DNA of 61,613 nucleotides, the filler included, from Hausera hauseri (taxonomy: Eukaryota): NCBI GenBank assembly GCA_046269625.1. It is 12 parts of 12 records of this genome, joined end to end, with 100 filler letters (N's around TTAATTAATTAA, not from the genome) between each part and the next. Parts side by side here need not be neighbours in the genome. Positions count along the whole stretch, not along the records: positions 10,871 to 16,450 come from JBJURY010226964.1; 11 more parts are not named here. One strand, 5' to 3'. The notes under the pieces are model-generated. The model worked only from the letters and a program-made list of their open reading frames with translations. It ran no database searches and was not told the DNA's origin. Of the stretch, positions 174 to 38,256 are shown one piece after another (position 1 is the first letter of the stretch; every line of letters begins with the position of its first letter). Both the position numbers and the translations under genes were made by a program.

Positions 174-253
174 TGATTGTGATAATAATAATAATAATAG
201 TTAGTTGTTTTGTTTGTGTAATAAACCAAAAATGATTTTGTACATGATAAGTA

Positions 254-2000: not shown

Positions 2001-2299
2001 CTAACTTACTTTGTGTGTTTTTGTTATTTTAGTTTTTCTCCGATCAGTAAATAATTGTATTCGTGTTACGTATTTCCTTTTCTAGTGTAAGGTTATTCTT
2101 TTACTTTTACTTCTATCTTACTTAATAATAATAGGTTAAGTAAGTCACCGAAAACAAAACACAAAAACCACTGATCAAAATACGTTATTGAAATATAAAA
2201 AACAATATACATCTGATAATTGTCAATGATTGTCACAGTAATTAAAATGAACTGAACTGATTTGTCTGAACCGACAGAGCACCGATTGTTTTGACGCGC

Positions 2300-5176
2300 C
2301 CAATTCTTATTTCGTTCCACCCACTTTCGCTTATGATCGTTACATGACAAAGCGACTTTCGCACTAGTTATTGTGTACAGCTGGTGTTCAATTGATCGGA
2401 TGATTGTTTGCGACACAACAGCCACTGATTGTCCTCTTTCTGCCGTTTTTTCATATATACGGCGATAGTCACCGCGGTCGACTTCCGTCTGTCTCAGCCG
2501 GACTCCTTTTTCCCGCATTTTCGGTCCACAGTCCGTCAGAAGACTGTAGCACTTTGGGCGTAGGAATATCCATTCCCGATACCAGACACGACCTTCACAT
2601 TCATCCTTGAAGCAGCCGATTTTGTTGGTGATCGCGCTGTTGTACAATGGATGATCCGGTGGATAGTTGCACGTGTCCAGTAATCCATCTGACTGAATTT
2701 TCTGCAGTAGCTGTTCGCAATTGACTTTTTTGCAGCCGCAGAAACAAAATTCTGTGTCACCGGCAATAATATTAATGTCACAGCCGTCAAACATTTACCG
2801 GTAATGTGCCAAATCGCAATACTGTAGCTCATACATCCGCAACTTGCTCAGGTCCAATACCACCTGTCCGATGTAACTTGGCCGGTCGAGAATAACTTCT
2901 TCTCTGTTTAACAGCACCACAACCAATCCATCGGCAATGTGCATTGACATCAAACAGTCTGTACATTTCCGGGTCTTGCAGCAGCTCAATGTCTCAATCC
3001 AATGACATTAGAGCTAACGCCCAACTCATTCCTGGTATAGAATAAAAGTTGAGTTGCTCCAGCCTATTTTCAGCCAACGCTTTCGCTCAAAACGCCTGGA
3101 ACACATCGGCTAATAAGCACACGTTCAGTTTAAGATACTGGAACATGTAATCCGACATTTTTCTACAGCCGAGTTCTGTCCAACACCTCTGTGCTTTCCG
3201 GTATTCATCCTCTGCAATACCAGTCCATGGCGGCGGTAATTCCTCTGCTGTCCGGAGTCGCCCATATGATGTTGCAAAGTAATATGGAAATATGCCTTTG
3301 CTGCGTGAAATATGTGCGAGGAAGTGCGTCAGTGCTATCTGCACATCTGGCAAGGCATTTAATAGCTTTGCCAATGATTCATTGAGAAATTGCAATGAAT
3401 CAAGTATGCGTACCTGGAACTGGTGTATACAAGCAGACAGTGACAGGTATTTCTCCACTGTAGTCGGATTTATGGATAGTTACCAGTGCGGAAATCCGTT
3501 TATTGCCCATTTCAAAATACGGTGACAATCATAACCCCTGAAGTTATGAAATACCACCGGTAAGAATGGTCGTACACGCCTTGCCAAATTTCATGAATTA
3601 CATGCTGCTCCAAAATATCGACCAGTAAAATGATGGGGATCCGGTACGAGCCATTACAGTGCATCACACGGGAATATTTTGTGAAACAGGTAACATTCAT
3701 CTGTGACTGCAAACGTCAGGCGTTCATCTTTATTTGTCCACATTAAAGGTTTATTGCTATTTCTACTGTATCAGGGTGCGATTTCAGTTTCCACTATGGT
3801 TTGCAACTGCTGCAAGAAATCGCGTACACAATTCCGTCTGTGGAAAACATAATATTGAGGTTAACCTGCGGCTTTTATTGGGATAACCAACATACCGACG
3901 GCGATTGGAACATGTTTTTGGTCATATATGTTGTGTCGTAATAAGATAGCTTCAATATCGTCATATGCTACATATGCCGGAATGTCTGTTTTTGACCAAT
4001 CAGTGAACCTGAGTCCCTGTTTGACGGGCATGACATACATTGTGATTCCTGACGAATTTTGTCTGCACAGAGTCACATGTTTTTCCCATATTGTTTCCGA
4101 CCTGCATCTATGAAGACATACAGGACACCATTTACACTGTATCCGTTTTTCGAGGAAATGGTCATGCTCCATGTTCAGTAGTCTGTCCAGATTTGTCACT
4201 ACAATGTAATGGTACTTTTTTCTTGTTCCAGTAGCAACAAATTTACTGAGCAGCCATTTGGGTTCCGACTACGATATATTATATACACATGAGGATTTTT
4301 GTAAATTTCTTCATCTTCCGGTATTTCTACGACTGTGTTGTACCGAAACACGTTGATTATTAGTGTCGGATTACGCCGTCGAATAGCCGGAATGGATTTC
4401 AGTTTCATCGGCATCCAGCTTTCATCGAAATCCAATTTGGAAAAATATTTCTGGTACTGTTTTGGACGAGATGCACTATGTCTTTCCACTTCGCAATATT
4501 TCAATACCGCCAGAATACTGTAAAGAAAACAGTATTCATCATTAGAATTTTTTACATTCACTACCGCCAGAGACTACTTCGGAGCTGCAGGTGTCGGTAT
4601 GAATGATCGTCCAGACAAATATATTATGTCACTCGACTTTGTTTTGATAAAGCCGAGGGTGAGAATTTGTATAATTCGCCATCCACTACCGTTTTCCGTG
4701 TAGTTGGCGATTTTCTCCTTGAGCTTTTCGCCTACGTCGGCAATAAAATAATTGGCATATGGTACAGCTCGATGTGACAGGTACCATTGTTTCCTGTCGC
4801 TTTTAACGTTTCCAAATTCTGCAAGTGCATAATATTGCACTTTGCAGTGTTGTTGTTGGAATTTCTCCACTTCTGATTCCAACCGGTTGTGCACATTTTG
4901 CGGAACATGTCTCAATTGCGTTGTTCTTGTTATTTCCGCAGACAGGGCCGCTTTTATGTTTACGTACGATCTGTTCAGATCGTATTTGACATTAATGTCG
5001 GATTCCTGTTGTATCTGTTCCTCTTGCTGTTGCTGCTTCTGCTGATTCTGCTGTTGTTCTTCTTCTTCTTGCAGCTCGGTACTGGTTCTGATGTATTTGT
5101 CCAAACTTGCTGATGCCTTACATTTCCTACTGGTTGTTTTTGTTGAAGGGATGCTGTTGATTTTTGTTGATTCCAT
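2300..5176 (-). pseudogene. Protein-primed family B DNA polymerase (pPolB), fragmented and internally deleted
   Basis: Motifs in order: GSGW..SFIPTP, NVKNSNDEYCFLYSILA, DPHHFTGRYFGAACNS (Endo VII-like insert), VFHNFRGYD, ILDSLQFL, KGIFPY, LLADVF, PSYIGQVVLDLSK, GDTE (motif C variant), KIGCFKDE, LRPKCYS, KVALS. Confidence 0.9.
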
Positions 5177-6312
5177 TAATATTTGTTTTTTCGACCTCCA
5201 CTGAAGCTGGTTTAGTGGTCTTGGTGATCATTGTAAAATTGTTCATAGTTGATTTCATCAACTATTGAACAACCGCGACAAATATTGTCCCGTTTACCGT
5301 GCACCTTTGTGGCGCCATAGTATTGCTCTATTGCTCGTGCACTGTACTTTTACAATACTGTGGGTACATCGGGCAATGCACTACCATCATCTTCTTCGAC
5401 CGTGTATACGGTCCGAGATAATGCTTGCGTACCTCATAAAAATCGGGTGCGGACAATGGGCTGAAATATTACACGTCGGACACAGATGTGTCCATTCCAA
5501 CGTTGTAATATTTCACCATCTGTTGATGGCACTGTTCTGCCTCTTCGTGCATGCGAGAGACGCAGTACTTGAGATATTGTGAACCTTTCTAAATTTAAAC
5601 AAATTAAAGTAAATGTTATCTTTAAATTGAAAACATTAAATACAATTAAATAATAAACTGATATACACTTATATACACTAACTTATTTCTTTTACGCATG
5701 TATAAACATATCAGCCATATTACATACTACAACTTAAATGGTAGAGTAAATTGAAAGTGAAATTCGGAAATGGACAGATGAAATAATGACTGGACACGTT
5801 TGACGTTCAGTATCTGTGTGAGCTGATAGAAACCAGAATAATGAGCAGACAAGAGTATATTGAATTAATAGTCCGATTTCTCTTCATAAAACGTATCGAA
5901 GATGAGTGGGGAAGAAAGCGGCAACGACGGATTAATTTCGTCATTGGAATTATATTTTCTGCTTCGCTTTGTATTGTAATGAAAAAGTTGATTCACCGTA
6001 TTTAATCACAAATATATATTAGTTCGCTATGTTTGTTTTCGCGAATAAATATAATTTATATGTTACATTTCAGTATAAATACTTGTGCTTCTTTACGGTA
6101 TGACATTACGACATGTCCCATTTAACAGAACGCGTTCGTTTATATCACTCGTTCGACGGTCTCCGGAGTCATCCTTACAATCTTGATTGACATTTACATG
6201 ATGGACAATACTGTTTGCCCAAGAGATACTCCGGCGTGATGAGGAGAATTGAAGGGCACGAGAACCTTATCTACGACATATGAAGCAGGTTCTTAGTGAT
6301 ATAAACACGATA

Positions 6313-6412: not shown

Positions 6413-8672
6413 CAAAAGACAGCTTTTGTAACTGCAGATGGACATTATGAATTTAACCGGATGGCATTCGGGATGAAAAATGCCCCAGCAACATTTCAAA
6501 CTGCTATGGATATAATTACAATGGATGCACCACATATAATGTGTTATGTAGGTGATGTAATAATTGCATCAACCGATTATAAGCAGCACAAGGAACACCT
6601 TAAAGATATGTTAGAGAGATATGCACTTCTAGGAATAAAAGTTAGTTTCAAAAAATGCTAGTTTGCTCGAACCAAAGTAGACTTCCTAGGCCACACAGTA
6701 ATCCGAGAAGGCACTAGTCCTCAAAATGTAAAGATAAATAAAATCCAAGATTTTTCAGTCCGAAAGACGGTTAAGGGAGTCCGAAACTTTCTTGGCTTCA
6801 CAGGCTACTATTGAAAATTTGTTAAAAATTATCAAGAGATAGCTTCACCTCTGCATTCATTACTACAAGAAAATTCTAAACTTGTTTGGACTCAAGAAAG
6901 TCAAAAGGTTTATTAACAATTAAAAGATAATCTATTAGCTGCACCTATATTAGCGTACCCAGACATGTCGAAACCATATTTTATAGCAAAAGACGCAAGC
7001 AAAATTGGAATTGGAGTTGTCCTATCACAGAAGGATGATCAAGGTCAAGAACATCCTATATCGTTTGGAGGAAGAAAACTGAGAAAACATAAGAACTATT
7101 CAACAATCGAACGTGAACTTCTTGCAATAGTTTATGCGTTAGAACAGTATGGCCAATATTTATCGGAAATTAAACCGATCGTTATTTACACTGATCATAA
7201 ACCACTACAGTGGTTGAAAAATCATAAGAACCCAAATAGCCGACTGATGAAATGGGCAATGTTGCTTCAGCCATATGATCTGAAGTTTGAATATAAAATG
7301 TGGAAAGAGAATGCTAATGCGGATTATATGTCAAGAATGCCAGAAGATATAGATCAAATTGAAAAAGAATCCACGGATAGACCTGGTGTCATAGCAGCAA
7401 TATGGAGTATTACAGAAAAGGAAAGATCACTATTACAAAAACAGCAAAATGATGAACAAATTAAATAAATCAAGAAATACTTAAAGAGAAAAGTAATACC
7501 CAGTGACATTGATCTCTATGCCCATTTTAAAAAGTTTGTCGAAAATTATGAAATAAAGGATGATGTACTATATTACTATTATAAAGGAAAACCAGTTGTA
7601 ATTGTTCCCCAAGAAGATATAAAATTGTTATTGACACAGTACCATGATGGCATGATGGGAGGTCACCAATCAGTAAAAAGAACCTTAGAAAGATTGAAAA
7701 GAAAATATTATTGGTATACTATGACTAAAGATGTTCAAGATTGGTGCAAGAGTTGCCCAATCTGTGCCACTAGAAAGAAAACCGGTTCAAAAATTAAAGT
7801 TCCTCATAAACCATTAGAATGTCCATTAGCCCCAATGGAATTTTTAGCCATGGATATCCTAGGATCGTTACCTATGACGATAAATGAAAACAAATACATG
7901 CTAGTGTTCGTCGACTTATTCTCCAGATGGCCAGTTCTAATACCAATACCAGATCAAAAAACCCAGACTATTGCTCGAGCCTTCGTCGAAGAAATTGTTT
8001 TCATTTATGGTGCGCTAATCAAATTATTGGCGGACCAAGCACCGAACTTCACAGGAGAAGTTATGGCGGTAATATCAAAAATATCTCAGATACTACAGTT
8101 GAAAACTACTTCGTACCATCCTCAAACAAATGGAACAGTGGAGAGATTTAAGGGATTATTAACTAATATGTTGGCTACCATGGTTAATGAACGACAAAGC
8201 GATTGGGACGAGTATATTAAGCTGTGTTTATTCGCTATTAGAAATACAATTAACCCGGCAACAAAAGAAACACCTGTTTATTTAATGTATCTTAGAGATA
8301 CTCATATGCCAATCGATTTGGATTTTAAAATGCCTGTGTCTCACTTGAAAGACGTAGAGTATAAAGAATTATTACAAGAAAAATTAGGATATGTATGGAA
8401 CTTACCCTAAGGTCACATAAAGATATGTCAAAAAGAATATAAAGATCGCTATGACGAAAAAGCAAAACCACACAACTTTAAACCTGGAGATAAGGTAATG
8501 TTGCATACCCCATTGAGTAAAAAGGGAAAGACACCAAAATTGGACAGACCATATAAAGGCCCATATATGGTCCAAAAAGTAGATGAAACTAACATACTTA
8601 AATAAAAATAAAAGAAATAAAATAGATTCAAAAGTCCATGTAAATAGATGTAAGCTCGCACCGACAGAATGA
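6413..8672 (+). pseudogene. pol: Ty3/Gypsy pol (RT C-term, RNase H, integrase), lineage A
   Basis: MAFGMKNAPATFQ, CYVGDV, DASKIGIG..YSTIERELLA..YTDHKPL, HHCC zinc finger, YHPQTNGTVER, YKGPY; RT closely similar to 16100-16450. Confidence 0.93.
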
Positions 8673-9975
8673 AAATAAGGAACGAAAACCTCAGTTCATT
8701 ATTAATGACAACATTTTTAATACTAACTTTAGTGACTAGTATATCAGCCCAGTCCTTGGATGTAACTTACAAAGCCGTACAAGTTGGAAAATACCCTTGT
8801 ATAAAAATTACGGCTAATCAAAATTTAACAACACATGAATATATACATATACTCATATCGAAATTACCTATAGTGGAGAAAGCAATGCCAGAAAACTGCA
8901 ATTTGTATTATAATAATTCAATACACATTTGTTGTGGGCTTTCGTTTGGAGAAGTGTATAGGATCAAATATGCAATTGGAAAGAGTGATCACAGCTACAG
9001 AACATATTTCTCATTCCCTGGTACTACCCATTATTTCCATCGACCCTATTTTCTTATTTCATTTTACACTAAGATAATGAGAAACGGACCCTGTGTAACG
9101 GCGAAACCCGACGTTGCAATTACGAGATATGTTCCATTCAAATACAATATATTCGATGGAACTAATAATACATATTGTGAACTAAGCTATCAAAATCTGT
9201 ATATATGTTGTCATATTGTTTTTGATAAAGAATATGCGATATATTATTGGACCACGTGTAACGGTTATACTTGATCAAAAACCTCGGATGGTCCAAAGAT
9301 AATAGTGAGATCTCCAGTAAGAAAAACTACTACTTCAAGAAAACAACTATTTCGACAATGCGATCTAGCATTTCTACGATATCAACAACGGAACCCAAGA
9401 AGGTTATTAAAGAATTAGATATAATTATCCAACCAACAACCTACTCATTGGCATTACGGTATCTGATTTAAAATCCACGAATATAAAATTTGAGTGTCAT
9501 TCTGATCATAAAGTAGTCAGCGAAGGAGTGTTAACTCCGGACGAACCAACATCGGCCTGTATGCTTTAAAAGCTGACACTAATTATAGAATTGTTATAAC
9601 AGAGCAAGACGAAGATGGACAAGTTCTACAAGTTGTTAGAAAGATAGAAAAAACGTTGAAATCACCAATGACCGTTCCAAAGAGAGTCATAAAAACAACT
9701 ACTATATAAGTTCAAAGAGAAACTTCTAATAAATACCTTTGGATAATGAGTATACTATGTGTTCTTTTAATATTATTAGTCATACTGTTACCTTTAATAA
9801 TTTATTGCTCAGAAATGAGATGGTGACGCCGTATAACAATAGAAATATTAAATCAATTAAAAATTTTAAGGGAAGACTCACAAGATGAGTCAAAAGGGAA
9901 TATAAGTGCGCTTAATAATGAAATTCCACAAATTTCTAAACGGCAAAATTGTCCGTCAATAAAGAAACCATAGGT
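8669..9975 (+). pseudogene. Post-integrase type I membrane protein (signal peptide, two Cys-rich repeats, S/T stalk, TM)
   Basis: Signal LLMTTFLILTLVTSISA; two PC...C.L.Y.N..ICC...F...Y.I.Y units; S/T-rich 9340-9400; TM YLWIMSILCVLLILLVILLPLIIYC at ~9735-9810; broken by stops and frameshifts. Confidence 0.65.
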
Positions 9976-10124
9976 CAAAAAGCCGACCAATCCTGAATGG
10001 CAAGATTGCCCGTTAACTCCTCTTAGCAATAAAAAGTCGAATAAGTAAACGACAAGATTGTCGAACAGCAGATATAATTGTATATTACTGTACAAAGATA
10101 CAGACCGAAGTTACTAAATTTCTT

Positions 10125-10649
10125 GTGACCCCTAAAAACTGTAAACCAAATAAAAGTACCTTTGTTTATACTCCTTTTCTCAAATCTTCTTGGCCAATAT
10201 TTATTTATTTCTTTTTAGTTCAAGAAAGATCCGAGGTTGCAGACAAAACCAAGTCGTTCTATTTTAACATTATCAGTAATCTAAACCAAACGGATAATAA
10301 AGATTATGTCTATTATGGCAAAGCGAATATTATACCGAACAACCTAAAAGGTCACGTTCTCCATCAAAGATCTGGACTGATCATGAAACTACCCAATGCC
10401 TCTACAAAACTATCAAATTTAATCGACATTTCTAGCCTAACTATGTCAGTTTTCATATCTGTAGCAAAGGGCAATCTCCAAATAAAAAGCCGAACACACT
10501 TAAATGATTTCACTGGCACCCTCGGTGTCACGGTTTACACCACAATCCGATTGGATAAGAAATTCTATAGAAATGTTACAATTATTTTGCAAACATATGG
10601 TGGTCCATCTCCGATATATATTATAAACCTTCCATCCGATGGATTATGA
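10125..10649 (+). CDS. Unknown ORF downstream of the membrane ORF, with a hydrophobic signal-like segment and N-glycosylation sequons
   Basis: 174-aa ORF; SWPIFIYFFLVQ segment; NQT, NAS and NVT sequons. Confidence 0.4.
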   Translation: MTPKNCKPNKSTFVYTPFLKSSWPIFIYFFLVQERSEVADKTKSFYFNIISNLNQTDNKDYVYYGKANIIPNNLKGHVLHQRSGLIMKLPNASTKLSNLIDISSLTMSVFISVAKGNLQIKSRTHLNDFTGTLGVTVYTTIRLDKKFYRNVTIILQTYGGPSPIYIINLPSDGL

Positions 10650-10982
10650 AAAGCCTATTTATCCCTCAAACTTGCCCAATCGTGACAATTTACAGCTGGA
10701 ATATTTTTTAAAGAGTACCATTAAAATCAAGAGATCAAATAGTTATATTAGCGACAAATTTTGCTTATCTNNNNNNNNNNNNNNNNNNNNNNNNNNNNNN
10801 NNNNNNNNNNNNNNTTAATTAATTAANNNNNNNNNNNNNNNNNNNNNNNNNNNNNNNNNNNNNNNNNNNNGAAGTAGAGTTAACGCTAATATTACAATTT
10901 CACGCACTGATTCAGCAAGGAGTAGTTCTGAATCAGACGAAAACCCCATTGATCGAACCAAATACTTACAGAAAGGAACTCA

Positions 10983-11760
10983 ATGTCTAGTTCTGGAATA
11001 GGAACTGGCTCAAGTACAACTGGTACAATGGTCCTTCCGACTGACAAGTTGGAAGGAAAACCAGACCAAGATTATAGTAAGTTTTTAATGCAATACCAAA
11101 TGTATTCACAAAGTTTTGAATGGTCAGATGAACTTAGTATATAATGCCTTCCCTTACATCTTAAAGAAATAGCACTTGGTGCTTATGCTCAGCTTGCGGA
11201 TGATGACAAAGCTGATTGGGCTAGCCTTATAAACGCCCTGGAAGAAAGATTCTTATTAGACTCGTGAGGAAAAGGTCAAATAGGAGAGTTTAACAGGCGA
11301 CGCCAAAGGGAAGGCGAAACAGTAAAAGAGTTTGCATGTGCCCTTCAGAAACTGGTTCAGAGAGCGTATGTAGATGTTGATGTAATGAAAGATGCTCTCC
11401 TGGAGCAATTCTGTTTATGGAGTTAATGAAGAAAATCAAAATTATAGTATCGTTTCCGACCTTGACACTTATAAAGAAGCTGTCAGCAAGGCTAGAAAAA
11501 ATTGAATTGAACTATGAGAGAATAGAAAATACGAAAAAGCCTCTCAAAACTGATGATAAAAAAGTGAAAATTTTTCAGCCGAAGAAAAATTTTCAAAAGC
11601 TGTTTTATAAAGTTCAGAATCAAACAGAACAGACGAAGAAGGCTGTGGCAGCAAGACCAACCTCAAAAATCTGCGATGAGGAAACAAACGGTTAACCAGA
11701 ACGGACAACCATTATGCATTGCCTGTCAAAAAAACGGATATTGTTCGCTCTTGTCCTAAC
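10983..11760 (+). pseudogene. gag: Ty3/Gypsy gag (capsid plus CCHC knuckle), lineage A
   Basis: LPLHLKEIALGAY..WASLINALEERF..RRQREGETVKEFACALQKLVQRAY; frameshifted knuckle CIACQKNG..IVRSCP at ~11715-11760. Confidence 0.85.
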
Positions 11761-12674
11761 CAAGGACAGAATGTTGACATAGTAGGCAATATATCTGATA
11801 CGGATAATGAACACGAAACTACAGATAGAGCCTAAAAAAGCAATTGAAAAGCTACAGTAGAAAATTAGATATAAACTAAAAGTAAACTAATAAAGTAGAA
11901 GATGAAAATAAGAGCTTAATTAAAACAGCTGTATCTTGAATTATGGAACAACAAATCCGTGAGAGAAGACAAAAAATGAACGACAAAAATTCAATCATCG
12001 CTCCCGTTGGCAGGTCCAAAAAGACTCCTATATCAGAATCGGATATAGAAAAGAAGAGTTAAGAAAAAGGATAAACCTCTGATACAAGAGGAATTATAGA
12101 CTCCGGAACAGAACTTATCCTCCGGAAGTGGAAGTGAAAATAGTGAGTCAAGTGGAGAAAATGAACCCAGGGACGATAAAAAGAACGAGGAAAAAGAAAA
12201 TAAAGGAAAAATCTCCAAATTATGAGTCTTCACCTGTGGATTTCGACCAGGATGGCATAGAAATAGTTCGGAAAATATCCAGCTATGCCAACCAATAATT
12301 AATCAATGGCACTCGGTTTAGACAAGACCTGTCCATGTTAATGTCACCAACAATAAGCCATCAACAGTTTGCTAATTTATTGGACTTGTTGTTAATGTAT
12401 GCTGCTGGCACAAGTCCATATCAGAATGTTGTGCGATATATGATTTATCGGTACGCTAATAAAGTGACGACAGTCGGGGAAAATCCTGAAGTAATGGTTA
12501 CTCTCTAACAGTATAACCAGGACTTTCATGTTCTGAGGATGAAATCTTTAGACATAATAGCTATATTAAAACAAAATTAATGAATCGGCCTCAACTACAC
12601 AACAAAGAACAGAATATCGTCCACCACAATAATCAGAGAGACAACGAAATCTACAAGCAGATTTCAATTTATCA

Positions 12675-14480
12675 TGGCTAACTAAAGTTATATGTATACT
12701 TCTTCTGTTTAGCCTGATGCAAAAAGCACTTTCAATCATTACTTACGATTGTAGTCAAGCTAAGAAAGGTCCAATATATTCCTTACTAGACTTAGAAAAA
12801 TGGCCATTTGCCAATCTGGCGTCACTAACTACAATATCGGAAAAGGAATACTACGTTTATCAAGAGTCGGAATTTGTGAAAACTAAGGTGAAAGAATGTT
12901 TTGTTCGAAAAAATCACTTTCACTTTATTTGCGGATATTAGTATCGAAATTCAGCAATAGTTGAACCAACTACTCCGTTCGAGCCACTCCCTATAATTAA
13001 ACGAATGTGTAACAAAACAGATCAATATTGGAAATATTCGGTTGAAGGCTCGGAAAGGAAAAATCATTAATAAAAGAATTTTTGTGGCCGTGACAATTGA
13101 TAAGACAGGATATTGTCAGGGTGAGTCCTACAATATCAATGGCGAAATTTTGGACATAGTGGCCATTGAAGATTATCAAGTTGAGCTGAAAGAATACGAT
13201 CCTCAGGAAAGATGATGACATTCCCTGAATGTGATTACTATAATAAAGAGTGTGACACTGGTGAATTAATTGTCATACGAAGTCGATATAAATAAGTGTC
13301 AGTTAGCTTTATTAAAAACCTGGAAAGGTTAATGAAGCAAAAAGACGAATGTACAAAGAAATATCTAAGAGCAGACTAGACCAAGTATCGGATATGATTG
13401 AGACTCCGACCATAGTATATTCAGCAAATCCCCAAGACGAAATGAGATTTAATTGGAAAGCGGTATCAGGAGATGTGACCATACGGTATTTCGAACCAAT
13501 TATAAAGGGATATTTCTATCCATAACAGAAATAGCAATAGCTAAGAGGAAGACTGATAAATCAGAAGTAAAACCCTACCTCTATTTTGACAAGATTAATT
13601 TTATTTATCAATTGCAGCAATAAAATATTTATGCCATGTATTGAGAGATAATATTAAATGATTGCAAACTGAATAGGGAGATAATTAGAAACCGGATATA
13701 TTTGTCATCAATAGAGGATGGAATAATAAAAAGATGCAGTCGAATCACCCGATGCAGATGGGAAGTTCGCTCGAACAATGGGTGCAACGCTTGTAACCTT
13801 CGAGTGTACAAAAGTACCTGTCAAATTAAGACCAACTACTGATTGTACTATGGAGTTACCCGTTTGGTACAAGGAAAAGCCGCGTTTCTTGCAACCAATC
13901 ACACGAACACTATTAAATCCGGAAGAAAACCCATATGTACATCAAAATTGTGCATATACTATGTCGCCAGCATTTCCATTAAGCGACAACTTATGGATCA
14001 GGATGCCGAAAAGGAGCAGATTACTCCACCTCGCAGAATTAGTTTGATTAAGTTGAAAACTGAACAAACGTATAAGCCATTAACAGATCTAGTAAAGATG
14101 GGCATGTATTCCGAACAATATATGGAAAATCATAGACGGATGATGATGTCCCCTCAACAGACAGAAAGTTTTAACGGAGATGTCAATGAAAGTGTTAGCT
14201 GATCACACCAAGAAAGTTAAATGTAAAAATTTGATGGGACCTAACTATGCAAAGATAAGAGCTAAGTATATATTCTAAGCCGCATGGGGATGGTATGTGG
14301 TTTGGTCAATTTAATTCTGGGTGGCTAGAATTTTACTATATCTTTGCCTTTATAAAAGAAAATCTGACTATAATAACTAAGGCATATGGTATTAAACAAG
14401 CTGCTTGATGCACATGAAAAATTATTTGTGCATTGATTCCATCCATAGCCAGTTGCTTTTTGATAAAAAATGCCGAATGG
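12675..14480 (+). pseudogene. env: Chuvirus-like class III fusion glycoprotein (env) between gag and protease
   Basis: WLTKVICILLLFSLMQKALS|IITYDCS..YSLLDLEK; FECTKVPVKLRPTTDCTMELPVWYKEKPRFLQPITRTL; GMYS..RRMMMSP; hydrophobic C-terminal region at ~14290-14460. Confidence 0.8.
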
Positions 14481-14764
14481 AAACAGAAGAAAAATAAGAA
14501 TGAGGAAGATGATAATAATAATGATGATGAACCTCCAGTAAAGATAAACGCGAGGAAACTTAAACCAGTAGAAAATAAAAGAAAGACATGGAGCCTGATT
14601 ACAGCTCGAAATAAAAAGAGGAGAACATTGTTATCAGATATTCCACAAATGCGGAAATAGAGTGAATACCCAATGGAACAATCACATTTTATACCTCCCA
14701 GTGAATACATAAACACATATTGCTCAAGCGATACGGATAATTATGATCAAAACATGTAAAGCTA

Positions 14765-16450
14765 ATGTTTTATCCCTCAGATCCAAACGCCTCTCTAATA
14801 ACTAGTACTGACAAAGGTAAGGTAATTCCGAGGACGGTAATTTGGATAAATGGGTATCCTATTACAGCTATAATCGACACCGGAGAATCTGCCTCAATGA
14901 TCTCACGTAAACAACTGCCAGAACAACTGAAAAAAGTTGCAAAAACCTATGAAAGATATTACGAATGTTGGAGCATTTGGAAATACAGCACAAGTTAAGG
15001 ATCTGATAAAATGCGAGACAAAAGTTCTTAACCAAAAATTTGAACAGGAATTCAAAATAGCTAACGAATTGGTGGCTGAAGCTATACTTGGATGTGACGC
15101 GTTAGCAAAATTAAAAGATATGTGCATACATATGGAGACTCAACAAATCCAGCCATATCGAAGAACAAAGAATGAGAAAAAGGACACAGTGGCCATTAAG
15201 ACGTGCTAAAACCAGCTAGAACGGAGATTGTGCTCAAAGCTCTAGTAGAAGGTCGAGATGAAGATGTTTATATTGAGCCAAACATAACCTTCATGGACAG
15301 GAATGAGCTATGGTTAGCTCATACAATTGATAACATACGAGAACAAGTGATTGTTTGAATAGCCAATGCCTCTAATAAAACCAAACTGCTTAGGAAAGGA
15401 ACAAGAATCGCTTACGTATATAGTATAAAGGATATAGGTAACAACGCAACGAAAGCCATTATCTCCACCGTACAGGAGTTGTCTGAATTCATGGAAAGAC
15501 AACGACATAAACCGCGAACAGAAGGTGGAAAAAGATTAGAAGATGAACAAATGAATAAATTGAAAAGTCATCGCAACAAAAATAAGAAAATAACAAAATT
15601 TGTTAAGACTCCTATTAGCTGGAACGATTATGATTTGTTTGGTAAGAATGGTGCGCTGACACATGGAGAAAGGTATAGTCAAAATATTACAACAATACAA
15701 AGATACCTTTGCAATGGACGAATATGATAAGGGTATAATACCCGATATTAAACATGAGATTAAGCTAAAATCTGGAATGGATATTCCAATCAAAAAGAGG
15801 CCATATCGACTCAGTTATGATAAACGTAAAAAGGCTAAGGAAATAATGGCCAAAATGAAACAATATAATATAATTAGACCAAGTAACTCACCATGGGCGG
15901 CACATATTGTAATGGTGCAAAAGAAAGATGGATCTATTAGGATGTGTGTGGACTACCGCGCCTTGAATGAGGTAACAGTGGAAAACACTTACCCGTTACC
16001 TAGAATTGATGAGATATTGGATAAGTTAAAAGATAAAATGTTATTTACCATATTGGATTTACAAAAAGGTTTCTGGTAGATAGAAGTACAGGAAGAGGAC
16101 AAACAGAAAACAGCTTTAGTGACCGCAGATGGACATTATTAATTTAACCGAATGGCATTTGGAATAAAGCATACCCGAGCACCGTTTCAGACAGCTATGG
16201 ATATAATTACTATGGATACTTCACACATAATGTGTTACGTGGACGATGTTATATTTGCTTCAACCGATTATAAACAGCATAAAGAACATCTAAAAATATG
16301 TTAGAGAGATGTGCACTTTTAGGAATCAAAATTTGTCTAAAAAATGTTTTGCTCGAACTAAAGTTGACTTTTTAGGCCATACAGTAAGTAAACACGGTAT
16401 TAGTCCACAGATTGGAAAAATCAACAAAATTCAGGATTTCCCAGTCCCAA
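14765..16450 (+). pseudogene. pol: Ty3/Gypsy protease and RT, lineage A
   Basis: AIIDTGESASMIS (PR); ILGCD; RPYRLS, SPWAAHIVMVQKKDGSIRMCVDYRALN, YPLPRID, LDLQKGFW, CYVDDV. Confidence 0.92.
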
Positions 16451-17640: not shown

Positions 17641-20600
17641 TTAATTACTTCTGGTTTTATGAGACCTGAGTGTCATTGGAGATGTTCTTTGGTGTAATTT
17701 GAATGAAGCGTGAGGTCTGTAAGACGGATCTTTTGTTCTGTTATCTTGTTGTGTAGGCGTTGGTGGGGAGTCAAAATTTGTTCTTTGTTTTGGTGTGAGC
17801 ATATGTGATTGTTCTTGTGTTTCTTCTCGTGTCTCGAGTGGTATTTCGTTTCTTTTGGGTATGACTCTTGTCTCTAGTTTTGGTGTCTCCCTTCTCTTGG
17901 GTATGGCTCCTGTCTCTCGTGTTGGTGTACATTTTGGTGTCTCCTTTCTCTTGGGTATGGCTTCTGTCTCTCGTGTGGGTGTTTGTCTGTTGGACCTGTT
18001 ATCTTCGGAGTCGTGTATTTCTAGGTTAGTTGGTGATTGGTGAGGTTTCTTCGATGGTGTTTTTGACGTGTGAGAGTTTGTTTCGTGAATGATTTGTGGA
18101 AGTGCATCATTGTGTGAGGTGTCGGATATGAGGTCATCAGAGCTTGAATCAGATAGATTGTCATTTATGATCGAATGACGCTTAGCGCTCAATGAGTCAT
18201 CAACGATAGGTGAATTCCTTGTTATTTCCTTGTTCGAATCTTCCACTCTTGGTTGTTGAGTTGCGATGGGGTGATGGAGAAAGTATTTGTACTCCCTTAT
18301 TGGTGGTGGATCTTCGTTGTTTGACGCATTGGTTTTGGACTTATCTTTTCGGTTGTCGTCGGGTTTCCTTGTCATGTCTTTCCTTTTCGATGTTGGTCTT
18401 TCACTCTCCTCATCCGATCTCTTTTCCTCATACATCCAATAATCTTTGTTCTTAAACGATAGTTGGGAGTATGGATGTATCGGTGCCTTAGCTATTTTTA
18501 CATTGTCTAAGTGTGCGGTGAAAGTTTTCCCTGTATTGAGACACTCACACATTATTTTGTTTCCCCCCAGAAGGGATCTACAAATATACGGTCCTGACCA
18601 TTTCTTAAATAGCTTGGAGGACTGATGAGGTTTCTTTACTGCCAAAAGAAACACATAGTTCCCTACCTTTATCGGTCTGTCAGGGGCTCTTGCATGTTGC
18701 CTAGAGATGTTTTTGGCAGTGGTGTCTTCGAGATGATCTCTACCTAAGTCTCTAATTTCCCTCGCTCTTTCTACGATGGATTGTACGAAATCTGAGACAT
18801 GTTCTCCTTCCTCCACCATTCCTTTGTTGTAAAAGGTGTGTGGAGAAGAATAGTCAGGTAGTTCCCATGGTAGACGTTTCACATAGCCATGTAGTAGATA
18901 ATGTGGTGATGTGCCTATTGATCGATTGTAGGCACTGTTGATCGAAATTTGTGCAAAAGGAAGGTAGGCACTCCAATCCTTATGGTTGTTAGCTACATAG
19001 CTTCTTAGGTAGTTGGCGATGTTGGCGTTCTCGCGTTCAACTAAACCGTTAGAAGCGGGGTGTCTCACGGAAATACACACTTTCTTTACTCTCCATTGCT
19101 TGCACAGCTGTTGAAACAGTTCGGAGGTAAATTCACTGGCCCCATCGGAGATTAACGTTTCCGGAGCTCCATGGTTCATGATTACTCTAGTTAGGAGAGC
19201 TTTGGCCACTTCTTCGCTTTTCCTCGTCTTGGTGGCTACGATCTCGACGTATCTTGTGAGTGCGTCCTTGAAGACAAGAATGTATTTTTCACCCGTTTTT
19301 TCACATGCTGGTAAAGGGCCTAAGGTGTCCATGTGGCATCGACTGAAAGGGGTAAAGGGCAAGGGCCACTTATTTAAGGCCGCGGGTTTTGGTGTATTTC
19401 CCTTTACTTTGAGACAAATCTCGCATGTTTGGCAATATTTAGTTACCAAGCCCGTCATATGAGGGAATATAAATCTCTCCTTGATCCTCTTTTCCGTCCT
19501 CTGTATTCCCCCATGTCCCGCTCCTAATCCAGCGTGTGCATTTTCAATCACTGAATAGATTAAGGAGTCAGGCACTTGAATCAAATCTCTGCCATCTTTG
19601 TTAGCCCAATGTAGGATGTTTTTCCTAAACACGTGTGGATAAGTCTCTTCATTGTTACGTCCCTTACTATTTTCCTTTCGTGTCCATTCGTAGAGTTTAC
19701 CCACCCTTGGACATTTTATTTGTTCTTTTCTTAAGACTTCTTCGGTGAGAGGAAGAATCTCCTTCGGTAGGCTCTTTGCTGTAAACCTACACACCTGGGG
19801 TGAGGGATTGCGCGATAGAAAGTCGGGGACGACGTTAAGTCTTCCCTTCCTATACGAAATGGTAGGATTAAACGAATTAATATACAAAACCCATCTAGCC
19901 ATGCGTCCAGATTCTTGTTTGTGTCTCAAGATGTGCACTAAAGAGGCATTATCTGTCTGCACTTCGACTGGGTAACCTAGGATGGTGTTTTTGTATTTCT
20001 TGAACGCATGTACGATTGCCAGGCATTCAAGTTCGATCGTTGGGTAGTTGAGCTCTGCCTTAGTGAGTCCTCGTGAGATGAATGATAAAGGCTTCTCCCG
20101 GCCTTCCTTGTCCAACTGGTATAGCACTGCGGCTATCCCAACTTGTGAAGCGTCCGTGTTGATGTAAAATTTCTTTTTATAGCACGGATAATTCAATTGG
20201 GGTTCAATGATGAGCTTCTCCTTGAGAGTATCGAAGGCTCTCTGTTGTTCGGGTCCCCAAACGAATTGAGTTGACTTCCTTGTAAGTTGTGTCAGCGGTT
20301 TTGCGACTTCTGCATATTTTGCAATGTGGTTCCGAAAATATCCGAAGAAACCCAAAAGACTCTGAGTCTCCTTGACATTAGTCGGCGGCACGAAAGTTTG
20401 CATGGTTTGCAGTTTCGCTGGGTCAGGTGATATACCCTCTTTGTTTAATTTGAAGCCCAGATAAATTACTGAACTTCTGAAAAAGTTACATTTTGATAGC
20501 TTAATTTTTAGATTGTTCCTTCGGAAGGAGTTGAATACTTCCTCCAGTTTAGAGTAATGGCTGGGTTTGTCCTTGGTGCAGATGAGTACATCGTCAAGAA

Positions 20601-22845
20601 AGACAAAAACGTTTTCTCTCAGAAGTTCCCCAAGAACAATATTCATTACTCGGCTAAAAAGACTGGGCGCAGTCTTTATCCCGAAGTTCATTCTTGTGGG
20701 ACAGAAGTGTCCCTTTCTTGTCCTGAAGGCCATGAGTTTTTGGCTTTCTTCCTCAATTTCGATTGAGTTGTAGGCGTCGAGCAAATCGAGGTTAGTGAAA
20801 TAGGTGTTTCCCGCTAGCGAGGACAAAATGTCCTCAATCGATGGGATAGGGTAATTGTCACTCTCGATGTAATTGTTAAGGTATCTATAATCTGTACATA
20901 TGCGTACTCTTGTAGTGTTCTTCTTCGGTATCACCAAGAGGGGTGATGAATGGGGTGATGTACAAGGCTTTATGTACCCCTTTCTGAGACTCTCATCCAC
21001 CCACTCATCCACTTTAACTAAGTAAGAGTGAGGGAGTCTATATTGCTTTCGAAATATTACCTTTGGTGCGTTAGGCTGAAGATTCACCTTGTACTTCGTG
21101 ATTGGGCACGGTTCCACCGTGTCGTCGTCAAGAGCAATCACATCGCGATGCTTTAACAAGAAGTCGAGTAATTGTGACATTTGAGAAGGGTCTTCGAGTA
21201 AGTTTTCTTCGGACTCTTTCCCTTCTAATGCGTTTTTAATGATATCACGATATTCTTTCCTGAGTTCTTTGGTCGAAAGACCATCGGAGATCGTGACTGC
21301 GTTTATTGTAGGACGGGGGCTCTCTTCCGGCAATACTATAATAGGTGAGCCTATAGAGAGTAAATTCCCCTTCGTTATTTCAATCTCGCTCGGGCTGAGA
21401 TTGATTGCTTCTATGCACACAGTGCCATCTTCAACGGCGCTTACAGTGTTTCCTAGGAAGACTGTATCCCGGAGTCGATTCTGCTCCGAAGCGATGACCA
21501 ATCCATTCCAAGGTTTGGTTCTTCCTGGAGATAATATGTCGGCCTTTATGACCTTTTTTGAGTGTGGGGGTAAGGTGGTGCCCCCCCTGGCGTAGAGATT
21601 ATAGACTACTTCATCATCTATTAGATAATCTCCACAAATAATGCTTTCCCTTTTTGGGAAAGTTTGTGCCCTTCGGTCTACTAATCTCCCTTTTTTCATG
21701 CTGCTATCTATGGAAGCGGAAAGAGGAATATTGACCTTCGCGGCAGTAATATCTTGTTCCATCACAATGGAAGAGCAAGTTTGAGAAAGACTTTGGTGCG
21801 AGCGATAATTTAATGTCTTATCTTGACACTGCGCTGAAGAACCCGAAGGTTCGTGCCACCTGGCCTCTCCCCACTTAGTCGTAATAGGCTGAAAAATGTC
21901 ACCGGATGGGCCTTTGAGTGGCTTCTCATCATGAAGATTCTGTAAGGATAATGAAGTCTCGGGTATCCCTGAGTTAGTAGGGTCCGAATCTCCTTCTTTA
22001 GGAGAATCATAGTTAATAATGTGGCGGTTCGCAGTACGTCCATAACCTTCTCGAATCCGATCAAAGGTGTCACTTGTAGCGTCCGCAGTGTATCGAGTTT
22101 TTCCATTGCAGGGCTCGATCACCCTAGAGTTATAGTTAATAATTTGGCGGTTTGCAGTACGTCCATAGCCTTCTTGTTCCTTCTGCATTCGAGGAACGGC
22201 GTCGCATGTCGCTTCCGCGGGTGCTCGATTTACCATGTCGGAGGGTTCGGCTACCCGGTGGGGGTATTCCTGCTCGGTCATCCCCTGATTTGAAGTGAGG
22301 CGGTATATAGCAGAGAGCTTCTTCATTGATTTTCCGCCAGTCTCTTGTATCAAGACTGTTTTATCTTTGAAGTTGTACCAGAAAGGTATGTCTTCTAAGG
22401 CAGCAGATCCTAGGAGCAGTCCACTCCTGCCGGGGCAATGATTATCTTCTACGATTTGAGCGTTAATAGCGTACCAGGCCTTGTGAAATTGAATATATAA
22501 TAATGTTTCACCAACGGGTTTGACCCTACTTTGGTTGAAGGCGAATAATGTAATTTGAGGTGAACTTTTTAACGGCTCTTCAATTTTGCCTTCCCATAGC
22601 TGTTCCCACAGTCTCTTTGAGATCAGATTCGACGAAGCGGCGCTGTCGACCAGGATTTGCATATGGGTTGGTTCATCCTCTTTATTTACAGCTACTTGAG
22701 CTTTTATGTAATAAGAAGGCCCAATACGAGGAGTAATATTTAATTCATGGAGAAGATAGTCTTGGGGGTGCCCTGAGTTGGAAGAGATAATTCCTATTTC
22801 TGCCTCTAGAAGTCTCTCTGGTGCTCTGCTACTTACTGAAAATCC
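17641..22845 (-). CDS. pol: Pol polyprotein (PR-RT-RNase H-IN with long C-terminal extension), expressed by -1 frameshift
   Basis: ILVDSAASSNLIS; VFLDDVL; NTDASQVGIAA..ELECLA; HHCC, DDE core, WSGPY; the frame stays open upstream of ATG 22662 to the gag overlap. Confidence 0.95.
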   Translation of the reverse strand, partial: GFSVSSRAPERLLEAEIGIISSNSGHPQDYLLHELNITPRIGPSYYIKAQVAVNKEDEPTHMQILVDSAASSNLISKRLWEQLWEGKIEEPLKSSPQITLFAFNQSRVKPVGETLLYIQFHKAWYAINAQIVEDNHCPGRSGLLLGSAALEDIPFWYNFKDKTVLIQETGGKSMKKLSAIYRLTSNQGMTEQEYPHRVAEPSDMVNRAPAEATCDAVPRMQKEQEGYGRTANRQIINYNSRVIEPCNGKTRYTADATSDTFDRIREGYGRTANRHIINYDSPKEGDSDPTNSGIPETSLSLQNLHDEKPLKGPSGDIFQPITTKWGEARWHEPSGSSAQCQDKTLNYRSHQSLSQTCSSIVMEQDITAAKVNIPLSASIDSSMKKGRLVDRRAQTFPKRESIICGDYLIDDEVVYNLYARGGTTLPPHSKKVIKADILSPGRTKPWNGLVIASEQNRLRDTVFLGNTVSAVEDGTVCIEAINLSPSEIEITKGNLLSIGSPIIVLPEESPRPTINAVTISDGLSTKELRKEYRDIIKNALEGKESEENLLEDPSQMSQLLDFLLKHRDVIALDDDTVEPCPITKYKVNLQPNAPKVIFRKQYRLPHSYLVKVDEWVDESLRKGYIKPCTSPHSSPLLVIPKKNTTRVRICTDYRYLNNYIESDNYPIPSIEDILSSLAGNTYFTNLDLLDAYNSIEIEEESQKLMAFRTRKGHFCPTRMNFGIKTAPSLFSRVMNIVLGELLRENVFVFLDDVLICTKDKPSHYSKLEEVFNSFRRNNLKIKLSKCNFFRSSVIYLGFKLNKEGISPDPAKLQTMQTFVPPTNVKETQSLLGFFGYFRNHIAKYAEVAKPLTQLTRKSTQFVWGPEQQRAFDTLKEKLIIEPQLNYPCYKKKFYINTDASQVGIAAVLYQLDKEGREKPLSFISRGLTKAELNYPTIELECLAIVHAFKKYKNTILGYPVEVQTDNASLVHILRHKQESGRMARWVLYINSFNPTISYRKGRLNVVPDFLSRNPSPQVCRFTAKSLPKEILPLTEEVLRKEQIKCPRVGKLYEWTRKENSKGRNNEETYPHVFRKNILHWANKDGRDLIQVPDSLIYSVIENAHAGLGAGHGGIQRTEKRIKERFIFPHMTGLVTKYCQTCEICLKVKGNTPKPAALNKWPLPFTPFSRCHMDTLGPLPACEKTGEKYILVFKDALTRYVEIVATKTRKSEEVAKALLTRVIMNHGAPETLISDGASEFTSELFQQLCKQWRVKKVCISVRHPASNGLVERENANIANYLRSYVANNHKDWSAYLPFAQISINSAYNRSIGTSPHYLLHGYVKRLPWELPDYSSPHTFYNKGMVEEGEHVSDFVQSIVERAREIRDLGRDHLEDTTAKNISRQHARAPDRPIKVGNYVFLLAVKKPHQSSKLFKKWSGPYICRSLLGGNKIMCECLNTGKTFTAHLDNVKIAKAPIHPYSQLSFKNKDYWMYEEKRSDEESERPTSKRKDMTRKPDDNRKDKSKTNASNNEDPPPIREYKYFLHHPIATQQPRVEDSNKEITRNSPIVDDSLSAKRHSIINDNLSDSSSDDLISDTSHNDALPQIIHETNSHTSKTPSKKPHQSPTNLEIHDSEDNRSNRQTPTRETEAIPKRKETPKCTPTRETGAIPKRRETPKLETRVIPKRNEIPLETREETQEQSHMLTPKQRTNFDSPPTPTQQDNRTKDPSYRPHASFKLHQRTSPMTLRSHKTRSN

Positions 22846-24872
22846 GGAAGGTCTACATAGGCGTCTTCATAGGATTCTTCGTCCGGAGCTCCCTTCCATC
22901 TTCTCTTTTCTTCGTGGGAATATTCTTCCTCCGACTCTTCCTCGGAGGTGTGAGCCTGTATGCTTCGAATATTGGTCCTCTCGTGACCTTTGAATTTACT
23001 AAATTTGTTAATTGCCCCTGGTTGGGTTTTGTACCTTGTTGATTGGCCTGAGTTTCTGAGTTCTTTGGCCTTTTTGATTCGGTCCCAAAAATCTTGAGGA
23101 ACATCTCTGGGATCTGCATGTGGCATGTTTCTGCCTGGTTCCCTAAACGGATCCCACTTTACGTCTTCGCATTCCTCACGAGTGCCTCTCTTGTGCATTG
23201 CTTTGCAACTCCGACAGTAGGGCTTCCACTTACACTGCCGGGTCAGGTGTCCGATTGATTCGCATCGGAAGCATATTAATAGTTGGTCACGGTCATCTTC
23301 TCGATCCTCTTCTTTCTTTCCTTTTCCTCGTTTTGGGTAGTTCCTCTGTTGAGACCTGTTGCCAGTCTCTTTTCTCCCCCTCTTTTCCTTTCTTTTCCAC
23401 TCCTCTTTAGTAGCACCTTTGTTTTCCTCGTTGGCTTTAGCGTACCAGATGTCTGCCTTGTCCTCCTTGCCTTCTCTTCCCCCAGATTTTTTCATATGTG
23501 GCATGTTGATGGCAGCGTCAGTTACTGTAATGAATTTCCTCGTCTGGGAAGCGAGATCATCCAGATGAGTCACACTTCCTTTGATTTTCTGCTTTAAGGA
23601 AGTTTCCTGCGCTGGTAGTTTGGCGTACATGAAACTCGTGATGACGTGGTTGAGAGTGACCTCATTCATTTCGACTCGGGGGTCGTCCAATTTCGCCAGT
23701 CTATACCATTCTATTACCAAGTCCTGTAGCTCGGCCATTGTTAATCCTACTGATTCCTGAGGTTGCCATCTGTACTCTACTAATTCACTCCATACATCGT
23801 AGGCGTGCAGTGTCTTCTCTGAGACAATGAATGATCTTAGGGAGAGCAAATACTCTTCTGCAGTCCTTGCTTTCTCTAAGAGGTGGGGTTTGGAGATAAT
23901 TCTTCTTATTTCCCCCTTTTCAGGGTGGATTTGCTTCTTAATCTGCTGGATTTTATCCGCTTCTGTGTGGAAATTGGTGCTTAATAAGTTTCCGCGTACG
24001 TTTGCCTCCCAATCGTCATATTTCGGCCCTTCCCACTTACCATCGCTGCCTCTCCCTATCAAGATGAGAGATATTGTCGACGTTTCTTCGGTGCGCGTTA
24101 TATACACGGGCGTCGCGTTCAACGGCATGGGCCCGCTCGTGTAGTGCCCAGTATTTGTCGCTTGCGCTGCATGCTGTGCGAAGTTGGTGTTTTGTGACCT
24201 ATAGTGGGAGTTAGAATATGTAAGAGGTGGAGTTCGAGTGATATGAGGTGGATTTGATAATTGAGATTGTTGAGGATTATTAGGAAAGTTAGAGTTCTGA
24301 GGTGGAAACCGTGTATTCTGTGTGTGTGGGAAGTGGGGGGATGGGTCGGTTGTGTTTCCATATGCTTCCCTGTTAATAGGAAAAGGAGTGTTGAGTTGAT
24401 GGTATTGAGTGTCCTGAAAGAGGTGTCTGTGTTGAGGAAATTGATCAGAATGGAGTCGATTTTTATGCTGGGTTTGCTTTTTAGGATTTAATTTATCCCT
24501 CTTACTCCCCTTTTTGTGCCTCCTTTTGGATAATTTTTCCAATCGCTTTAGAGTTCTCTCATACTCACTCTCAATTTCAGTTCCAGACATACAATCGTCT
24601 TCAGAATCACTCTCCTCATCATACCTATCACTCCTCTTTCCCTTATTGTCATTCACCATTGTCAACCCTTGTTTATTGCCCTCAGTTCTTTCCCCCACAT
24701 TACCCCCCCCATAGGCTCCTATCTTATCCGACTCTGAACTTGGGGATTCCCCTTCTTCAGTTGGCTTGCTTTGTACATAGGTACCAGGTAATGTCTTTTC
24801 TGGAGATGAGGGTCTAGCCTCTAACCCATTGTTGGCTGTATCTTCCATGTTTTTTCTGTTAATGTTTTCCAT
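22833..24872 (-). CDS. gag: Gag polyprotein
   Basis: 679-aa ORF; CFRCESIGHLTRQC knuckle followed by CRSCKAMH...C; lies between PBS and pol. Confidence 0.88.
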   Translation of the reverse strand: MENINRKNMEDTANNGLEARPSSPEKTLPGTYVQSKPTEEGESPSSESDKIGAYGGGNVGERTEGNKQGLTMVNDNKGKRSDRYDEESDSEDDCMSGTEIESEYERTLKRLEKLSKRRHKKGSKRDKLNPKKQTQHKNRLHSDQFPQHRHLFQDTQYHQLNTPFPINREAYGNTTDPSPHFPHTQNTRFPPQNSNFPNNPQQSQLSNPPHITRTPPLTYSNSHYRSQNTNFAQHAAQATNTGHYTSGPMPLNATPVYITRTEETSTISLILIGRGSDGKWEGPKYDDWEANVRGNLLSTNFHTEADKIQQIKKQIHPEKGEIRRIISKPHLLEKARTAEEYLLSLRSFIVSEKTLHAYDVWSELVEYRWQPQESVGLTMAELQDLVIEWYRLAKLDDPRVEMNEVTLNHVITSFMYAKLPAQETSLKQKIKGSVTHLDDLASQTRKFITVTDAAINMPHMKKSGGREGKEDKADIWYAKANEENKGATKEEWKRKEKRGRKETGNRSQQRNYPKRGKGKKEEDREDDRDQLLICFRCESIGHLTRQCKWKPYCRSCKAMHKRGTREECEDVKWDPFREPGRNMPHADPRDVPQDFWDRIKKAKELRNSGQSTRYKTQPGAINKFSKFKGHERTNIRSIQAHTSEEESEEEYSHEEKRRWKGAPDEESYEDAYVDLPDFQ
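22839..22845 (-). promoter_or_regulatory. -1 ribosomal frameshift slippery site G GAU UUU
   Basis: Minus strand reads CCG GAT TTT CAG TAA at the gag end; a -1 slip enters the pol frame (SVSSRAPERL...). Confidence 0.75.
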
Positions 24873-24974
24873 TTTATAATAATAAGTAAAAATTTTCTTT
24901 TACCTTTCGTTTTTAGAAGACACTGTTTCTTCCGCTAGTGGAGGTTTTTTCTTTCTTCACGACGTCTTCAGAAA

Positions 24975-38250: not shown

Positions 38251-38256
38251 ATCGAA

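Follow-up and report, generated by a model that had tools for sequence, protein, structure and literature searches.

The window analysed here is a stretch of 61,613 nucleotides from the genome of Hausera hauseri (NCBI GenBank assembly GCA_046269625.1). One of its contigs, at 10871-16450, very probably contains a decayed copy of a high-copy Ty3/gypsy retroelement family of the GAG-ENV-POL, Burro-like kind, in which a glycoprotein (G) of the glycoprotein B (gB) type is likely read within a polyprotein that initiates at Gag. We refer to this element as lineage A. The gene order is not new, and lineage A is a new, decayed member of a published kind. The contigs that make up the window are unplaced, measure 4-9 kb and are separated by N44-TTAATTAATTAA-N44 spacers, and the element is confined to a single contig of 5,580 bases without a gap. 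This contig begins inside or just before gag and ends within the reverse transcriptase (RT). No long terminal repeat (LTR) or primer site was found on it, and no LTR pair was found within the relative loci L001-L003 introduced below.

Relatives were collected by a HMMER search with an open piece of G from a second lineage in the window (lineage B) over 1.84 billion representatives, which returned 125 matches. A second search added 9 long proteins, and three DNA loci (L001-L003) were also added. From these we annotated 27 G-bearing relatives, namely the stronger, longer matches with their cluster members, the 9 long proteins and the three loci, leaving out short fragments and weaker matches. 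A word-based protein search with the same lineage-B piece found nothing among 1,098 candidates. Signal-like stretches were called by hydropathy throughout.

An earlier note on this DNA had described the order gag - spacer - G - protease (PR) - RT on one strand with no gap. Profile, Pfam and translation evidence confirm this order, with capsid, knuckle remnant, spacer, signal-like stretch, G, membrane region, linker, PR, dUTPase-like domain and RT all on the + strand over approximately 5.4 kb from capsid to RT (Table 1). The capsid, recognised by a profile built from five relatives, also aligns with that of L002 (32% identity, E 4e-16) and weakly with the dArc2 capsid (E 0.49). Capsids of the relatives themselves give Ty3_capsid or Retrotrans_gag matches, which are weak. 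An ATG at 10983 lies in the capsid frame and is a putative start only. The CCHC knuckle of the earlier note is a remnant: it has lost its His and changes frame, it aligns weakly with the knuckle of P0010 (E 0.24), and no Pfam zf-CCHC match was found in contig 10871-16450. The spacer, estimated earlier at about 300 codons, measures 310. The sequence IITYDC (12735-12752) directly follows the hydrophobic stretch WLTKVICILLLFSLMQKALS, and in the relatives such a stretch precedes an [AG]-[YF]-D-C motif. Further downstream, the protease region matches P0003 and P0002, the RT is 51% identical to that of P0003, and the dUTPase call is consistent with 12 of 12 Protein Data Bank (PDB) matches being dUTPases, as obtained with a profile of alignment A8 that includes the lineage-A stretch.

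Table 1. Parts of lineage A, its sister contig and lineage B, in window coordinates (iE, independent E-value)
Feature	Position	Strand	Evidence or remark
Lineage A: Ty3/gypsy-type Gag capsid	11031-11411	+	2 stops; relatives' capsid profile iE 6.8e-22
Lineage A: zinc-knuckle remnant	11715-11754	+	C-x2-C kept, without His, frame change
Lineage A: spacer, ~310 codons, knuckle to signal	11755-12674	+	contains conserved helical domain
Lineage A: signal-peptide-like hydrophobic stretch WLTKVICILLLFSLMQKALS	12675-12734	+	internal position; putative cleavage before IITYDC
Lineage A: class III (gB / chuvirus-type) fusion glycoprotein ectodomain	12735-14284	+	several frames; Pfam PF24664 E 1.9e-9
Lineage A: G membrane-proximal and transmembrane region	14285-14468	+	frame-broken; G profile 562-633, iE 6e-11
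Lineage A: charged linker, ~120 codons	14469-14827	+	translation
Lineage A: aspartic protease, DTG near 14870	14828-15149	+	two frame segments; RVP E 0.0034
Lineage A: dUTPase-like domain between PR and RT	15200-15460	+	weak; best PDB match E 0.014
Lineage A: RT, YVDD at 16236-16247	15675-16450	+	RVT_1 E 2.9e-20; contig end cuts RT
Sister contig of lineage A: RT end - RNase H - integrase - second membrane protein	6413-10770	+	79.5% nucleotide identity, 352 RT bases
Sister contig: second signal-like stretch, then putative luminal domain	~8699-8752	+	
Sister contig: transmembrane stretch	~9734-9808	+	
Lineage B: G - transmembrane region - linker - PR - RT - RNase H - integrase	42988-47516	-	PF24664 E 5e-18
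Lineage B, second copy: end of G - PR - RT - RNase H - integrase	52851-57254	+	
CCHC - spacer of ~1,300 codons - hydrophobic stretch - start of G	34269-38692	+	probably lineage B

A profile of G from 13 relatives (642 positions) matches lineage A collinearly over 12675-14510 with its positions 4-633. Across 72 window frames, only the lineage-A contig and three lineage-B contigs match this profile. Conserved cysteine columns hold Cys in 12 of 14 cases in lineage A, with one more at a break and one changed. The AlphaFold model of G from relative P0008 (33% identical to lineage A; pLDDT 81) is predicted to fold like herpes gB: comparison with gB of herpes simplex virus (HSV) gave a Foldseek E of 4e-13 and a Z score of 10.0, with a root-mean-square deviation of 9.2 over 397 aligned residues. 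The best matches of the same model in the viral structure library are glycoproteins of chu-like viruses (E 3e-39, 22% identity), and a viral contig scan with P0008 found no match.

The lineage-A copy is dead and no product is made from it. Since no open reading frame (ORF) exceeds 139 amino acids (aa), since 12 stops occur in 1,141 matched codons and since G is split over 8 frame segments, this copy is not one reading frame. In the frame of the signal there is a stop at 12630 and the next ATG is at 12717; a neighbouring frame, open to 12679, has an ATG at 12580. The earlier observation of no in-frame Met before the hydrophobic core is therefore literally true of the present frame, but it carries little weight as an argument for a polyprotein, given the break immediately upstream in this frame and the density of breaks in this copy.

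The relatives provide better evidence. G and protease share one ORF in 24 of 27, while L002, P0008 and P0023 end before the protease. The ORF of G includes a capsid or knuckle in 14 of the 27, and 12 others begin within the spacer or G. Fifteen relatives extend as far as Gag, and in 14 of these no stop separates Gag from G; capsid, G, protease and RT are unbroken in one ORF in seven of 27. At the DNA level L003 is one ORF of 2,693 codons, and the lengths of relatives reach 2,100-4,844 aa. P0023 has an ORF of 1,963 aa with no Met within 60 residues before YDC. The claim of a Gag-initiated polyprotein thus holds in intact relatives such as L003. Because its own frame is broken, the same reading for lineage A is drawn from these relatives.

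Several points weigh against this reading. An in-frame TGA (3058-3060) stands immediately before the signal of L002, where the Gag-spacer-G frame is otherwise open; this stop may reflect decay, error or read-through. Lineage A has no continuous frame, and a single ORF is seen in relatives only. The second search returned proteins of 1,444-4,598 aa only, and for this reason it favours fused forms. Among the 27 relatives there are two near-duplicate pairs, P0004/P0126 and P0013/P0128. The gB-like fold is predicted for P0008, not for lineage A, and lineage A is likened to the published elements Burro and NERV (see below) by description, not by sequence. The phylogenetic evidence is also mixed. 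A first FastTree based on RT only (131 rows) grouped lineage A with two env-less elements, P0247 and P0142, a placement that was rejected after the addition of more relatives and an approximately unbiased (AU) test. A single origin of G-bearing pol is not rejected but weakly supported (Shimodaira-Hasegawa (SH) support 80; p-AU 0.377), and the G tree does not resolve lineages A and B.

How might one such frame deliver its products to different compartments? We infer from the sequence that G may use an internal signal peptide. Ribosomes would start at gag, and Gag and the spacer would stay in the cytosol. The hydrophobic stretch after the spacer would then serve as the internal signal, directing G into the endoplasmic reticulum (ER), with signal peptidase cutting just before the YDC motif. 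Transfer would be stopped by the membrane anchor of G, so that protease, RT, RNase H and integrase would emerge back in the cytosol, where the element's own protease would free the Pol parts. After Pol, the topology would alternate once more, through another signal, another luminal domain and another anchor. The signal would stay on the C-terminus of Gag and tether it for a time to the membrane beside G, an arrangement that would suit the budding of enveloped particles. Flavivirus capsids are held transiently at the membrane by a C-terminal signal in a similar manner.

Alternatively, the same gene order could be expressed by other means: G could come from a spliced or internally started mRNA, or from read-through of a stop before the signal, in which case Gag, G and Pol would not arise in a 1:1:1 ratio from one polyprotein. 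The TGA of L002 would fit this explanation, as would the stop at 12630 and the out-of-frame ATG at 12580 of lineage A and the Met that many relatives have within 60 residues before YDC. In the retroelement Cer1 no stop separates gag from pol, and yet a spliced mRNA is produced (PMC10309623), which illustrates that splicing and a single ORF can coexist; the passages of this source on the region between gag and pol concern stop codons, not env. On the other hand, the frame is free of stops from Gag to G in nearly all relatives that reach Gag and continues from G into protease in most of the 27, P0023 lacks a nearby Met, and L002 is a single metagenome contig whose stop may be decay or error. We therefore regard separate expression of G as unlikely.

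Less probable still, and in our view quite improbable, is that the class III-fold G acts inside the cell, for example as an ER tether for assembly, or has some other role, and that no infectious particles are formed. According to the available text of PMC13524379, transmission by env is still unshown outside Drosophila and the entry function of gB-type env is unknown. Nevertheless, elements that are only ~30% identical have retained the ectodomain at full length together with its conserved cysteines, and the fold predicted for P0008 matches gB over the 397 aligned residues given above.

Trees and copy data bear on whether G was acquired in a one-off event. Among the 120 best RT matches, those that carry names are mostly gypsy-type pol proteins, and the pol order is that of Ty3/gypsy, with PR-RT in lineage A and RNase H-integrase in its sister contig and in lineage B. 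The RT trees contain no copia, BEL or retrovirus outgroup. IQ-TREE with more relatives grouped lineage A with 12 G-bearing elements (support 84/86), and its placement with the env-less P0142 and P0247 was rejected (p-AU 0.017). In the RT-RNase H tree, which has 93 rows, the 10 rows labelled G fall together with the lineage-A sister contig and P0127, apart from the 81 others (SH 80). In the G tree, all 20 rows from retroelements cluster together, apart from 8 homologues that are more distant (bootstrap 99). P0015, P0020 and L003 separate from the other rows in the G and pol trees alike, so the two trees agree where they are resolved; the congruence check suggested by the earlier note thus came out favourably for this part of the trees.

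The lineage-A family is high-copy: sequence related to lineage A covers 30 of 30 bins in two public runs, in records that are mostly <95% alike. One public-run contig (X2 record 10, 12600-12816) spans the junction of spacer, signal and G, and of the 116 joints, the 15 listed include none that skips G and no skip longer than 364 bases. Self-BLAST found no repeat pair flanking G, the best off-diagonal matches being 31-32 bases at 78-84%. Base composition is similar across the lineage-A parts, with a GC fraction of 0.34-0.38. The claim that G and pol differ clearly between the two lineages was also correct, with 28.6% identity in G (276 columns) and 40% in RT (139 aa), and the order found in lineage B and in 24 of the 27 relatives agrees with an architecture common to divergent elements. 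The short, unplaced contig, the very repetitive family and the first RT-only tree might suggest that a viral G was inserted once into a gypsy element lacking env, or that repeats were joined into a chimera during assembly, but this is exceedingly unlikely given that no flanking repeat pair was found, that composition is similar, that other copies bridge the 5' junction, that no listed joint skips G, that the AU test rejects the env-less placement and that lineage B and 24 relatives have the same order.

The novelty of the gag-env-pol layout implied by the earlier note did not stand, as this layout is already in print (PMC6431247, PMC13524379). In the available text of PMC6431247, the planarian Burro / GYPSM1 elements are giant gypsy-like LTR elements with env in frame between gag and pol. 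They encode a Gag with CCHC, an env with matches to mononegavirus glycoproteins and a dUTPase-like domain between protease and RT. The cargo named there comprises ubiquitin/SUMO-like, Bcl-2-like and ankyrin domains, and decaying Burro fragments are present in one planarian. Lineage A resembles Burro in the position of env and in the dUTPase-like domain between PR and RT, a domain that is not unique to Burro. The cargo of Burro also occurs in our relatives, the Bcl-2-like domain weakly so. Unlike Burro, with an ORF near 5,000 aa in an element of >25 kb, lineage A is compact, with its short spacer, one degenerate knuckle and no detectable ubiquitin- or Bcl-2-like domain. As lineage A falls short of Burro in size and its cargo was not detected here, we call it Burro-like, not Burro. 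The layout of Burro is closer to that of the long-spacer contig 34269-38692 than to that of lineage A. The available text on Burro says nothing of a membrane protein downstream of integrase.

A second published group shares its env type with lineage A. Chary and Hayashi (eLife, PMC13524379) describe GAG-ENV-POL "errantiviruses" with HSV/gB-type ENV from nematodes, flatworms and bryozoans; their supplement contains 36 such elements from nematodes, 9 from flatworms and 10 from bryozoans, every one of them classed as ENV_HSV. As far as the source is available, these elements combine a Ty3/gypsy pol, a gB-type class III env and the gag-env-pol order, as does lineage A, where env lies between gag and pol and a gB-type ectodomain with conserved Cys lies between a signal-like stretch and a transmembrane region. 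Lineage A may fall within one of the families catalogued there. The published elements are intact and have near-identical copies, which is an inclusion rule of that study and not a trait of the lineage, whereas the lineage-A copy is decayed and its family is mostly <95% alike. The terms "polyprotein", "single ORF", "frameshift" and "splic" do not occur in the main text as available, so that expression appears not to be treated there. Nematode endogenous retroviruses (NERV; Sacco et al. 2022, J Gen Virol) are cited in the same paper for their flipped env-pol order and a captured glycoprotein resembling those of RNA viruses. Class III glycoproteins of chuviruses and mononegaviruses make up PF24664, and those of chu-like viruses resemble the P0008 model in fold. 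Mosquito BEL/Pao elements carry class III glycoproteins of this chuvirus/mononegavirus type (PF24664). In chuviruses and in mosquito BEL/Pao elements G is a separate gene, while here it lies inside a Ty3/gypsy polyprotein, upstream of protease. NERV reportedly has a continuous gag-env-pro-pol ORF, and is said to occur in nematodes only, in chromadorean hosts, and to form its own RT clade.

The spacer of lineage A contains a helical domain at 12260-12484. It is matched at 12329-12463 (iE 7.5e-6) by a profile from 11 relatives without window rows, and also by L002 (E 0.001). Fold searches gave no identity for this domain, as the ubiquitin domain took up their matches. A ubiquitin-like domain follows the helical domain both in relatives and in contig 34269-38692; that of the relatives matches ubiquilin (E 1.3e-5) and the SUMO/ubiquitin fold (Z 12.5). 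In some relatives a weak Bcl-2-like domain (E 0.001-0.03) comes next. Neither domain was detected in the lineage-A spacer with window-free profiles, although decay could hide them. A candidate Bcl-2-like domain in contig 34269-38692 was dropped, as it was seen only with its own row in the profile and disappeared with the window-free profile.

Contig 34269-38692 matches zf-CCHC (E 2.7e-5), the helical domain (iE 1.3e-4), the ubiquitin-like domain (iE 7.5e-6) and the start of G (iE 4.5e-18), and its 333-codon spacer ORF continues into the hydrophobic stretch. The assignment of this contig to lineage B is a guess, because it has no overlap with the other two lineage-B contigs. Before G it encodes a GRPRK motif, which we take to be AT-hook-like.

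Further domains were seen in individual relatives. L001 has an extra module of signal, domain and anchor between its protease copies and RT (L001:4700-5400), and further downstream it has an ORF that encodes an exonuclease domain (L001:10617-12107; RNase_T E 1.4e-5). Several relatives (P0010, P0126, P0248-P0254) have at least two protease-like domains, some of them after integrase, and P0248 has ankyrin repeats too. P0003 is a full retroelement polyprotein that includes G; its record assigns it to a Flavobacteriaceae metagenome-assembled genome, and it probably represents mis-binned animal DNA.

A second membrane protein appears to follow the integrase. The end of integrase can be recognised in 12 relatives, and in 11 of them an in-frame signal-like stretch and a later transmembrane stretch follow; none of nine env-less pol tails has such a stretch. 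The sister contig of lineage A has the same layout in broken form. There, the segment at 8637-9808 (+) comprises the signal-like stretch, a putative luminal domain with repeated C-x-x-L-x4-Y-like motifs and the transmembrane stretch, and downstream of the second membrane protein an open frame of 210 codons without a Pfam match (10017-10649, +) is possibly an accessory ORF of the element. The post-integrase domain is poorly conserved among relatives. No Pfam match to it was found in the window, L001 or L003, where only weak matches to membrane regions were obtained. Atlas scores of 0.80-0.82 and an iE of 0.079 for the relatives' motif profile point to an FN3/Ig-like fold, which we treat as a lead only; P0255 has a signal and an Ig domain after integrase (Ig_3 E 1.5e-5). 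A literature search, which did not extend to Sacco 2022, Grohme 2018 or the figure supplements of PMC13524379, found no description of a post-integrase membrane protein or of tests of processing.

Somewhat speculatively, these elements might use two glycoproteins for entry, both made in one membrane-threaded polyprotein: a gB-type fusogen before pol and a post-integrase, FN3/Ig-like partner for attachment or triggering. Gag, G, Pol and this partner would be separated by signal peptidase and the element's protease, with no role for frameshifting or splicing. We hold this to be doubtful. The post-integrase protein would be a fast-evolving type I membrane protein, and lineage A would be a minimal, cargo-trimmed form. 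Herpes gB works with gD and gH/gL as attachment or trigger partners, and it is to these that the second membrane protein would be likened.

Other contigs of the window hold further features. An intact env-less Ty3/gypsy element at 17641-24899 (-) has overlapping frames for a gag of 688 aa and a pol of 1,741 aa and a long RT branch. An intact Tigger/pogo-type transposase of 494 aa, with CENP-B_N, HTH_Tnp_Tc5 and DDE_1 domains, is encoded at 31539-33023 (-). Contigs 1-6312 and 47617-52750, possibly Polinton-like, have 530 bases in common at 79%, and the latter encodes an rve integrase at 49924-50529. Contig 57355-61613 consists of tandem copies of a 15-base unit, and each of its strands has long open frames.

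Because the gene order is known and the copy is dead, lineage A adds a data point, not a discovery. It places a compact element beside a long-spacer lineage in one genome, the two being ~29% identical in G. For the intact relatives it raises the question of how one ORF yields cytosolic Gag and Pol together with a luminal fusogen. If the second membrane protein does bind a receptor on behalf of the gB-type fusogen, this would answer how gB-type env enters cells without gD and gH/gL, a question that PMC13524379, in its available text, leaves to be addressed.

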